A stretch of 64,000 nt of DNA from an uncultured delta proteobacterium (GCA_963848295.1 CAWKDB010000010.1:1472001-1536000), one strand, 5' to 3'; numbered from the stretch's first letter, positions 28,905-31,329 are shown. Program-made: numbers and translations. The notes: a model not told the origin generated them from the letters alone.

Positions 28905-29148
28905 CGGCTCCGGCTCCGGCTACGGCTACGGCTACGGCTCCGGCTCCGGCTACGGCTACGGCTTCGGCTACGGCTCCGGCTACGGCTACGGCTACGGCTT
29001 CGGCTTCGGCTTCGGCTTCGGCTTCGGCTTCGGCTTCGGCTTCGGCTTCGGCTTCGGCTTCGGCTTCGGCTTCGGCTTCGGCTTCGGCTTCGGCTTCGGC
29101 TTCGGCTTCGGCTTCGGCTTCGGCTTCGGCTTCGGCTTCGGCTTCGGC
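28905..29148. repeat. Hexamer microsatellite (GGCTCC/GGCTAC then 25 perfect GGCTTC)
   Basis: Read directly; perfect GGCTTC run 28996-29145. Confidence 0.98.
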
Positions 29149-29195
29149 ACGTTTGAATCCGGCAAAGGGGCCGGACGCAACGCCGACGGCCGCGC

Positions 29196-29516
29196 TCACC
29201 GCGTGAGCCGGAACAGCATCGCGCGCACGCGATCGAGTGGCGCCTCGATCGCGGCGAAGTCGTCGGCGGTGATGTAACCGCGCGCCTTCGCGATGAGCAG
29301 CGCCGCGGACAGCTCGCGGGCGCTGCCGAAGGCGCGGCGGAACATGTCGGGCCGGTCGAGGCCGGCGCGTGCGCTCGCTTCGGCGATGTTCAACGCGATG
29401 CTCTCGGCGGCGCGGCCGATCTCGTCGGCGAGCGACTTGCGGCGCGAGCGAAGCTTCGGCTCGACCGGGGCGAGCTGTTCGAGGACGGCGAGCGACTGGG
29501 CGAGGACATCGAGCAT
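29196..29516 (-). CDS. Four-helix-bundle protein (23S rRNA IVP / Avd-like family), copy A
   Basis: LADEIGRAAESIALNIAEA..FRRAFGSARE signature; GAAAGG RBS-like upstream. Confidence 0.88.
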   Translation of the reverse strand: MLDVLAQSLAVLEQLAPVEPKLRSRRKSLADEIGRAAESIALNIAEASARAGLDRPDMFRRAFGSARELSAALLIAKARGYITADDFAAIEAPLDRVRAMLFRLTR

Positions 29517-29545
29517 GGCGTGGCCTTTCGTGGATGAGCGGACGC

Positions 29546-29732
29546 CCGATTCGCCGGGGCCGTCTCGCCCGTCGCGCCGCACTCGCGCCGGCGCCGTGAC
29601 GAGCGCGGGCACAAATCTCCGCACGCGTCGATCGATCCAACTCTGCGGCGGTCCTTCGCACGCGTCGGTGGTCCCGGCGCTCGGCACGGCGCTGGCGCGA
29701 AGCGGCGCAGGGCGACGGCCACGGCGAATCGG
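29546..29732 (-). ncRNA. Putative rod-like structured RNA/leader, copy A
   Basis: Long self-complementarity; homologous to 30152-30349 with compensatory stem changes. Confidence 0.6.
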
Positions 29733-29750
29733 AGGCCGCGAGGAGCGAAG

Positions 29751-30123
29751 CGGCGGCGGCATCGGCGACGGCGACGGCGACGGCTACGGCGACGGCTACG
29801 GCGACGGCGACGGCTACGGCATCGGCACCGGCTACGGCTACGGCATCGGCACCGGCTACGGCTACGGCTACGGCACCGGCTACGGCTACGGCTACGGCAC
29901 CGGCGACGGCTACGGCTACGGCTACGGCTACGGCTACGGCGATTGCGGCGGCGGCGGCATCGGCTGCGGCCGCGGCATCGGCTGCGGCATCGGCTGCGGC
30001 ATCGGCTGCGGCATCGGCTGCGGCTGCGGCTGCGGCATCGGCTGCGGCGGCGGCTGCGGCGGCGGCGGCGGCGGCGGCGGCGGCGGCGGCCGCGGCCGCG
30101 GCCGCGGTTGCGGTTGCGGCGGC
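29751..30123. repeat. Mixed (GGCNNC)n microsatellite (GAC/TAC/ATC/ACC/TGC/GGC/CGC variants)
   Basis: Read directly, lies between the two divergent cassettes. Confidence 0.97.
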
Positions 30124-30151
30124 CTAGAACACTCGACGCTCCTTCGCTCGC

Positions 30152-30349
30152 GCCGATGGGCGGAACGTCTCTCTCGCCCTGCGCCGCTTCGCGCTTGTCC
30201 CCCGCCGAGCGCCGAGTGCGCCGGCGTGTGAGAGCGACCGCCGCGGAGTTGGATCGACCGGCGCGTGCGGGAGGTGGTGCCCGCGCTCGTCACGGGACCC
30301 GCGCGAGTGCGGCGCGACGGGCGAGAGAGAGACGTTCCTACCCATCGGC
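30152..30349 (+). ncRNA. Putative rod-like structured RNA/leader, copy B
   Basis: Arm 30152-30194 pairs with 30301-30349; inner stems continue; GGAGGA RBS follows at 30360. Confidence 0.6.
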
Positions 30350-30370
30350 CACTCACTTCGGAGGATCTTC

Positions 30371-30694
30371 ATGTCGTTCTACGCCCTCGACTTCGCCCTC
30401 GCCGTCCTGCACCAGCTCGCCCCTGTCGAGGCCAAGGTTCGCCGCACGCGCAAGTCACTCGCCGACGAGATCGTCCGCGCCGGCGAGAGCATCGCGCTCA
30501 ACGTCAGCGAGGGCCGCATGCGCATTGGCCTCGATCGCCCCGACTTCTATCGCCGCGCCGCCGGCAGCGCGAGCGAGCTCACGACCGCGCTGCTGATCGC
30601 GCACGCGCGCGGCATCATCTCCGCCGAGGACTTCGCCGCGATCGACCGGCCGCTCGACCACGTCCGCGCGATCCTGTGGCGGCTCACGCACTGA
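30371..30694 (+). CDS. Four-helix-bundle protein (23S rRNA IVP / Avd-like family), copy B
   Basis: LADEIVRAGESIALNVSEG..YRRAAGSASE; 70/106 identical to copy A by manual alignment. Confidence 0.88.
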   Translation: MSFYALDFALAVLHQLAPVEAKVRRTRKSLADEIVRAGESIALNVSEGRMRIGLDRPDFYRRAAGSASELTTALLIAHARGIISAEDFAAIDRPLDHVRAILWRLTH

Positions 30695-30877
30695 GCGTTC
30701 GCGCCGGCTTCCGCGCCGGCGAACTGATTTCGGCCACCCTTCGCGCAAAGCACACGACGGTGCGGAGCGCCCGGCCGCGCCAGGTGTAAGCGGGGTGTCA
30801 GCAAGAGAACGTCGCCTCGTAAACGGCAGGATCCCGACAAATGTGACAGCGATGTCTTGAGCACCTCCAGTTCCCTT

Positions 30878-31329
30878 CGGCATCGGTCACGGCAGCGGCT
30901 GCGGCAAGGGCATCGGCGACAGCGACGCCGACGGCAACGGCGACGGCAACGGCAACGGAGTCGGCGACGGCTGCGGCAGCGGCTGCGGCAAGGGCATCGG
31001 CGACAGCGACGCCGACGGCAACGGCGACGGCAACGGCAACGGCAACGGCGACGGCGACGGCAACGGCAACGGCAACGGCAACGGCAACGGCGACGGCGAC
31101 GGCAACGGCAACGGCAACGGCAACGGCAACGGAGTCGGCGACGGCTGCGGCAACGGCAACGGCGACGGCGACGGCGACGGCAACGGCTCCGGCGACGGCG
31201 ACGGCGACGGCAACGGCTCCGGCGACGGCATCGGCTGCGGCAACGGCTGCGGGCAACGGCTGCGGCAACGGGGGCTGCGGCGACGGCTGCGGCGACGGCG
31301 ATGGCTGCGGCGGCGGCTTCGGCTCCGGT
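30878..31329. repeat. Mixed (GGCAAC/GGCGAC/GGCTGC)n microsatellite with an internal 84-bp-period duplication
   Basis: Read directly; block starting GGCAGCGGCTGCGGCAAGGGCATC at 30891 and 30975. Confidence 0.97.

Follow-up and report, generated by a model that had tools for sequence, protein, structure and literature searches.

A dispersed element of two hairpin-led four-helix-bundle genes in an uncultured delta proteobacterium, with a DUF222-HNH nuclease as candidate mobilizer

A divergent pair of four-helix-bundle (4HB) genes, each led by a hairpin and set among GGCNNC hexamer tracts, occupies positions 28905–31329 of the window, i.e., the 64,000-nucleotide stretch from an uncultured delta proteobacterium analyzed here (GCA_963848295.1 CAWKDB010000010.1:1472001-1536000). 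The pair is a dispersed two-cassette element, and the locus very probably belongs to a family of mobile cassettes. A DUF222-HNH nuclease that recognizes the hairpin as the element end may well move it in trans, a reading to which we give a probability of about one in two. New here is the hairpin common to 4HB cassettes and DUF222-HNH genes. In the literature covered, with most subscription journals and all supplements outside its scope, nothing was found on these cassettes or on the link between hairpin and HNH gene.

Calls of open reading frames and repeats confirmed the order given in the first-pass annotation, i.e., tract, 4HB-A (minus), hairpin A, tract, hairpin B, 4HB-B (plus), and tract, as well as the insertion of the whole between two convergent host genes (Table 1; the bounds of the central tract are approximate). 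The left tract starts 4 nt past the stop codon of the left host gene, the right tract stops about 15 nt short of that of the right one, and neither is present in the empty site of the closest relative, G104. The 66% amino acid identity between 4HB-A and 4HB-B, formerly counted by hand, was reproduced by alignment (66%; 70% over 98 residues). Homology indeed extends over leader and gene, with the leaders 83% complementary over 153 nt and the genes 76% over 331 nt. Conserved trailers 3′ of both genes are absent from the earlier annotation. Neither sigma-70 promoters nor terminators were found within the element, and no mobilizing enzyme is encoded inside it, as had been noted. At the same position (window 28900–32006), at least 11 of 13 more distant relatives carry a GroES-like gene, a label taken from sequence reading, between the left gene and a GNAT gene; in the genome of the window (G000) and in G104, the unrelated right gene stands in its place.

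Table 1. Parts of the element and its host genes, in window coordinates.
Feature	Position	Strand	Remarks
Left host gene, 191 aa	28325..28900	+	Context only; weak zinc-ribbon match; present in 82/91 genus genomes
Left GGCNNC tract	28905..29148	+	GGCTCC/GGCTAC, then 25 x GGCTTC
Trailer of 4HB-A	29149..29195	-	Conserved, with short G+C stem; matches at 6 other copies
4HB-A, 106 aa	29196..29516	-	PF05635/TIGR02436 four-helix-bundle protein
Leader hairpin A	29517..29750	-	Conserved core 29572-29709; ends at ribosome-binding site
Central GGCNNC tract	29751..30124	+	Common to both back-to-back cassettes
Leader hairpin B	30125..30370	+	Conserved core 30180-30317; ends at ribosome-binding site
4HB-B, 107 aa	30371..30694	+	PF05635/TIGR02436; predicted four-helix bundle like Xcc0516, Avd
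Trailer of 4HB-B	30695..30877	+	Conserved; in copy E4 stops directly at duplicated CTAG
Right GGCNNC tract	30878..31328	+	GGCAAC/GGCGAC-rich
Right host gene, 194 aa	31343..31927	-	Context only; no family match; present in 1/5 relatives tested

In profile searches, both proteins score above the PF05635 and TIGR02436 cut-offs, which upholds their placement in the family that includes the ORFs of 23S rRNA intervening sequences (IVS). The AlphaFold model of 4HB-B (pLDDT 94) matches Xcc0516 with a TM score of 0.84 and Avd (4DWL) with 0.82; the predicted fold is thus Avd-like, in line with the structural kinship proposed earlier.

In G000, the complete divergent pair is present ten times (copies E0–E9), at unrelated loci distributed over three contigs. 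4HB-A recurs at eight other loci with 93–97% amino acid identity and once as a truncated copy (E9), and 4HB-B at nine other loci with 90–93% identity; a diverged pair, a single cassette, and a pseudogene make up the further cassette loci of this genome. Most copies adjoin a host stop codon with their outer ends. Nineteen of the 20 genes in the ten pairs are intact, and dN/dS between copies is 0.13 for 4HB-A and 0.16 for 4HB-B. Private changes give pN/pS values of 0.22 and 0.13, respectively. Both proteins are under purifying selection. None of the Mantel correlations among 4HB-A, leader A, leader B, and 4HB-B is significant, and about half of the informative site pairs are incompatible by the four-gamete test (189/325 and 197/406). 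The copies are therefore mosaic, with segment-wise exchange (gene conversion) between them, and they are functional. A one-off inverted duplication fixed at the window locus would account for the homology between both halves, but for nothing further. Ten copies at unrelated loci rule this out, and the first-pass annotation had named a syntenic and fixed locus as its sign, whereas the element is absent from the window locus in all 14 relatives read; a one-off event can practically be dismissed. At the left edge of E2 (G000 C2:1460930-1460990) lies an end that we take to be IS481-like, and the 4HB-B trailer resembles a decayed version of it.

Comparison with G104, whose flanks are 87–94% identical, covered eight of the ten loci (all except E2 and E9). 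The search for empty sites suggested by the first-pass annotation was borne out at E0, E4, and E7, where G104 is empty. The left flank of E1 is joined directly to the right flank of E6 in that genome, with 12 bp between the stop codons, which points to flank exchange between copies. At E3, the A-side flank of G104 is without the element but adjoins another gene. Decayed cassette remnants at E5 and E8 indicate that some empty sites in G104 may be losses. The empty site of E4 consists of a single CTAG, at which the stop codons of the two genes overlap; a GGCTTC-type tract belonging to the right gene comes next. In G000, the insert has CTAGCG on either side; the frequency of CTAG is 0.4 per kb. 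These junctions suggest that one insertion met an existing tract and duplicated 4–6 bp. A target-site duplication is clear at one of four empty junctions, and the three others are without a tract. The ends of E4, the sole copy with defined ends, are not complementary, and terminal inverted repeats were accordingly not found there. Sequencing reads, thin over the left flank and ending short of the junction, showed no joint. Insertion beside host stop codons is shown by these loci, and the element likely inserts at the stop codons themselves.

Relatives with names belong mostly to Kofleriaceae/Haliangiales. Genus tallies comprise 91 genomes, among them two flagged as unpublished (G010 and G057), on which no other claim depends. 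The 4HB protein is found in 75 of the 91, with 0–26 matches each. Leader and gene travel together, as had been expected: the leader is present in 41 of the 59 metagenome loci with enough upstream DNA (80 loci in total). Microsatellite flanks, for which the first-pass annotation had suggested a test across homologs, are found mainly on one side: an upstream array is common (22/42, against 7/400 random windows) and a downstream array is rare (7/69). A second 4HB gene is present at 16 of 103 loci, convergent in 15 and divergent in one. At all ten G084 loci fetched, of 24 matches, the pair is divergent and the partner belongs to a different subfamily; in G100, the pairs are convergent and the hairpins lie on the outer sides. 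The recurring unit is thus tract-hairpin-gene, found singly, convergently, or divergently. Of the earlier picture of an RNA-protein module spreading as a unit, the spread stands, given the multiple copies and empty sites; the module itself needs revision, for the unit includes the tract and its hairpin also occurs at DUF222-HNH genes.

Other 4HB genes of G000 are arranged differently. A second family of about 540 bp (C2:270988-271525, C2:797062-797602, C10:3467455-3467986, and about eight further ends) has terminal inverted repeats, and inverted (TTGACC)n arms enclose the gene. CTAG lies five bases outside most of its ends, and one copy shows a 12-bp duplication. Gene-less versions of 70–90 bp exist, and group II introns lie at or in several copies; the ends presumably resemble IS4-group repeats. 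At C8:9516-9824 and C10:3043690-3043905, 4HB genes stand between inverted hexamer arrays (GAGCCC and GTCCAC), an IVS-like layout.

The leader is a covarying hairpin with a core of about 140 nt and a whole length of about 190 nt. Folding z-scores are −6.3 (A) and −4.4 (B), and none of 200 shuffles is as stable. Across 39 leaders, both partners vary in 10 of 22 stem pairs, a count that related sequences can inflate but that none of 500 shuffles reaches, and slid controls lie far lower. Columns 60/152 fail to pair in 35 of the 39, and two positions are conserved mismatches. The leaders have no Rfam match at the gathering score, and the hairpin model has no match in 60 other genomes of the phylum outside the family (53 candidates scored per genome). 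All 24 leader matches in G000 precede a 4HB gene or 4HB remnant. Two inward-facing hairpins with tandem copies of the hairpin 5′ part outside them were seen at L232 (G005:C74:152100-154900), with no 4HB gene recognized in between. Another long hairpin of G000, without homology to the 4HB leader, was seen at C10:3445458-3445727 and about 11 more positions; it precedes most RAYT-like genes and also occurs elsewhere.

The strand on which the leader would act bears on an unlikely alternative, namely that the cassette is a domesticated host module, for example an RNA-controlled regulator or defence factor, whose copies are maintained by selection and homogenized by gene conversion, whose hairpin is a protein-bound mRNA leader, and whose mobility is old and incidental. 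Folding energy favors the antisense strand, the sense strand being lower in 11 of 39 leaders as RNA and in 5 of 39 as DNA, and G-U and A-C pairs are even overall (55 vs 56). With the conserved C.A set aside, sense-strand G-U exceeds A-C at variable stem positions in 28 sequences against 4, of 38, in favor of a host module, as are the end of the hairpin at the ribosome-binding site, the 19 intact genes with low pN/pS even for private changes, and the occurrence of the 4HB family in cas loci (available part of PMC3936711). However, a copy number of 0–26 across 91 genomes and the decay of copies in G104 do not suit such a module, nor does the position of the hairpin at HNH genes.

A pattern search with the hairpin core recovered copies also in genomes without a 4HB gene, and several of them precede genes for proteins of about 400 residues that match DUF222 and carry an HNH motif at the C terminus. 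The covariance model R1, built from 4HB leaders only, matches both sides of the HNH gene at L230 and L234; the arms at L230 are 206 nt long and 91% complementary. Among the 32 best-per-genome HNH loci, five match at E<0.001, one of them being the query locus, against none in 34 control loci of equal total length. In four genomes, selected for having shown the association before, 16 of 20 further HNH loci match at E <= 1.7e-6. All 16 hairpins face the HNH gene, 12 from upstream and 4 from downstream. Where the DNA was read, hairpin and HNH gene have no 4HB gene between them; its absence at L297 and several more HNH loci is presumed, in part from the genome-wide 4HB tally. These hairpins retain the stem and the conserved mismatch. 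They lie hundreds of bases upstream of the gene or on its 3′ side and cannot be translational leaders there; the hairpin looks instead like an element end.

Multi-copy DUF222-HNH genes of about 400 codons are present in 72 of the 91 genus genomes. G000 itself has two intact DUF222-HNH-like ORFs (403 and 427 aa), the nearest 680 kb from the window element. No hairpin was found near either (the best score, 23 bits, equals background), which counts against an HNH mobilizer. A search for HNH genes in five cassette-bearing genomes gave no match in three, one distant match, and one fragment: G084, with 24 cassette genes, has a single distant match (33%), which lacks a hairpin, and this query gave no match in G102, G047, and G075 (10, 8, and 8 cassette genes). 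The proposal of a co-occurring reverse transcriptase (RT) or nuclease family finds no support for a DGR-type RT and survives for DUF222-HNH in some relatives. Judged from sequence, this nuclease is a candidate mobilizer of the cassette.

According to the preferred reading, the DUF222-HNH nuclease would cut at or near hairpin and target, and host repair would complete the insertion, by analogy with the movement in trans proposed for REP hairpins, on which RAYT acts. The 4HB protein may assemble into an Avd-like ring, bind the hairpin or the repeats in that form, and serve as an accessory or restraining factor. The tracts would arrive as short seeds or pre-exist at the target, then grow and turn over by slippage, and could let copies recombine. 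Several observations count against this reading: only five of the 32 best-per-genome HNH loci match, a target-site duplication is clear at one of four junctions, the empty sites of G104 may include losses, and private changes are under stronger selection than an entirely passive passenger would require. Rather doubtful is a different scheme, in which an independent REPIN-like hairpin lands by stop codons, the cassette spreads via tract recombination or hitch-hiking with insertion sequences, and HNH genes share the landing sites. Solo hairpins of G005 do come after stop codons, 4 of 23 genome loci have a RAYT gene within about 1.1 kb, transposase remnants adjoin cassettes in G084, the E1 and E6 flanks are swapped relative to G104, and one polarity prevails in 33 of the 34 tracts at the ten loci. 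Yet such a hairpin would not be expected to face the gene at 16 of 16 HNH loci or to precede a 4HB gene or remnant in every G000 match, and the three tract-free empty junctions offer nothing to recombine into.

RAYT genes are frequent in the genus, and RAYT was considered as a mobilizer in its own right. It was rejected, since the numbers of RAYT genes and cassettes show no correlation (rho 0.04, 91 genomes) and G084 is without a RAYT match; both results also weigh against the REPIN-like scheme. No significant match to the hairpin was obtained at nine RAYT loci of G000, the apparent likeness of the RAYT upstream hairpin to the 4HB leader is not significant, and one hairpin near a RAYT gene in G050 points away from it.

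The central tract lies at the same place in every copy, is 111–408 nt long, and has a unit make-up specific to each copy. Those of E2 and E4 are visibly related, which suggests that the central tract is inherited and then changes. Of 89 CGG-anchored hexamer tracts in G000, 39 lie at the 13 cassette loci, so the association between tract and cassette is not due to chance; the other 50 lie away from cassettes, many in coding linkers. Three such in-frame low-complexity linkers with cassette tract units are C11:383261-383482, C11:380671-380844, and C10:3810855-3811118. In that at C11:380671, 14 of 65 mixed 22-mers match copy E6, which raises the question of tract DNA spreading into genes. Within the window, a perfect (TCCGAC)n run at 35476–35563 encodes a Pro-Thr linker in a large protein gene and has no relation to the cassette. 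At G084 loci L173, L175, L176, L179, and L180, a transposase 3′ end and recurring end remnants lie within or beside tracts, suggesting that tracts are landing sites for an insertion sequence, presumably IS4-like.

An Avd-like fold next to variable repeats invites comparison with diversity-generating retroelements (DGR), and the link to a DGR reverse transcriptase that this fold had suggested found no support. No DGR-type RT was found in G000 (85% complete); its three full RTs carry QGGVISP and are of group II intron type. RTs read from four relatives belong to the group II or retron types and lack the DGR motif [IVL]GxxxSQ, and one cassette-bearing genome has no RT match at all. Retron RTs are recognized by the motifs NAxxH and VTG. 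Beside six RTs of this type, the leader was unmatched, and it was rejected as a retron ncRNA.

Free variation is seen at two hexamer positions, both of them poor in C (39 and 94 of about 700 units). For the bRT-Avd complex, the available part of PMC7826257 gives misincorporation of 22% for A, 18% for C, and 12% for G, with the order T > G > C; the scarcity of C fits this chemistry in direction. Together with the TM score of 0.82 to 4DWL and the patchwise exchange between copies, this might suggest a DGR-like retro-element in which an error-prone RT and the Avd-like protein copy (GGCAAC)n, mutate adenines, and spread the cassette. This is improbable: the RTs read are of group II or retron type, a third hexamer position also varies, no invariant template was found, relatives' tracts vary at three positions or have other units, and 50 similar tracts lie away from cassettes. 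Given that no DGR RT was found and that relatives use other units, slippage from short seeds is the more likely source of the tracts, one of which was already present in the E4 empty site.

The preferred reading can be placed among known systems. Like the 23S rRNA IVS, as described in the available part of PMC4990558, the element combines an S23p/PF05635 protein, sporadic horizontal movement, a long stem, and short tandem repeats of variable number beside the ORF. In contrast to an IVS, it lies between two protein genes without an rRNA match, its hairpin is wholly upstream of the gene rather than enclosing the ORF, and its tracts are direct, not inverted. Its genes, moreover, are paired, possess a good ribosome-binding site, and evolve under purifying selection; the Coxiella IVS ORF, in contrast, is reported to be decaying (same part of PMC4990558). 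With REP/REPIN-RAYT, as far as PMC3333891 was available, it shares an intergenic repeated hairpin that also occurs alone and flanks a nuclease gene. However, the nuclease here is DUF222-HNH and RAYT is a Y1 HUH enzyme, the hairpin, about 190 nt long, comes with passenger genes and microsatellites, and it is missing from the RAYT loci of G000.

REP13E12 is named among repetitive elements in part of PMC10589994. DUF222-HNH genes of such repeats carry the hairpin at one or both ends in several relatives, but the window element encodes no nuclease; a passenger cassette sharing REP13E12/DUF222-HNH ends was not found in the literature searched. Common to the element and DGRs (parts of PMC10053308 and PMC7826257) are an Avd-like fold, a structured RNA-like segment by the gene, and variation confined to set repeat positions, but no DGR-type RT was found, and the element is without a template/variable repeat pair and a protein target. 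The comparison literature also includes part of PMC5524665. In sum, the element lacks defining features of an IVS, a DGR, a REP/RAYT pair, and a MITE; by analogy, it would work most like a REP/RAYT pair while using an IVS-family protein.

PF05635 proteins are very common and their structures have been solved, with no function assigned outside DGRs. The movement of IVS-type cassettes is an open question in the field, and we know of no account of how DUF222-HNH repeats move. The common covarying hairpin names a substrate and an enzyme and makes both movement questions testable. The element holds 44% of the long hexamer tracts of G000 and exchanges flanks between copies, and it thereby shapes genome structure in these soil bacteria. 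A tentative extension is a two-tier mobile system, in which DUF222-HNH genes would be the autonomous enzymes, with hairpin ends of about 190 nt, and the 4HB cassettes their passengers and nucleic-acid chaperones, seeding microsatellites at the sites where they land. If true, such a system would provide a mechanism for two widespread families of unknown function, and it may involve an RNA-guided or RNA-scaffolded nuclease.
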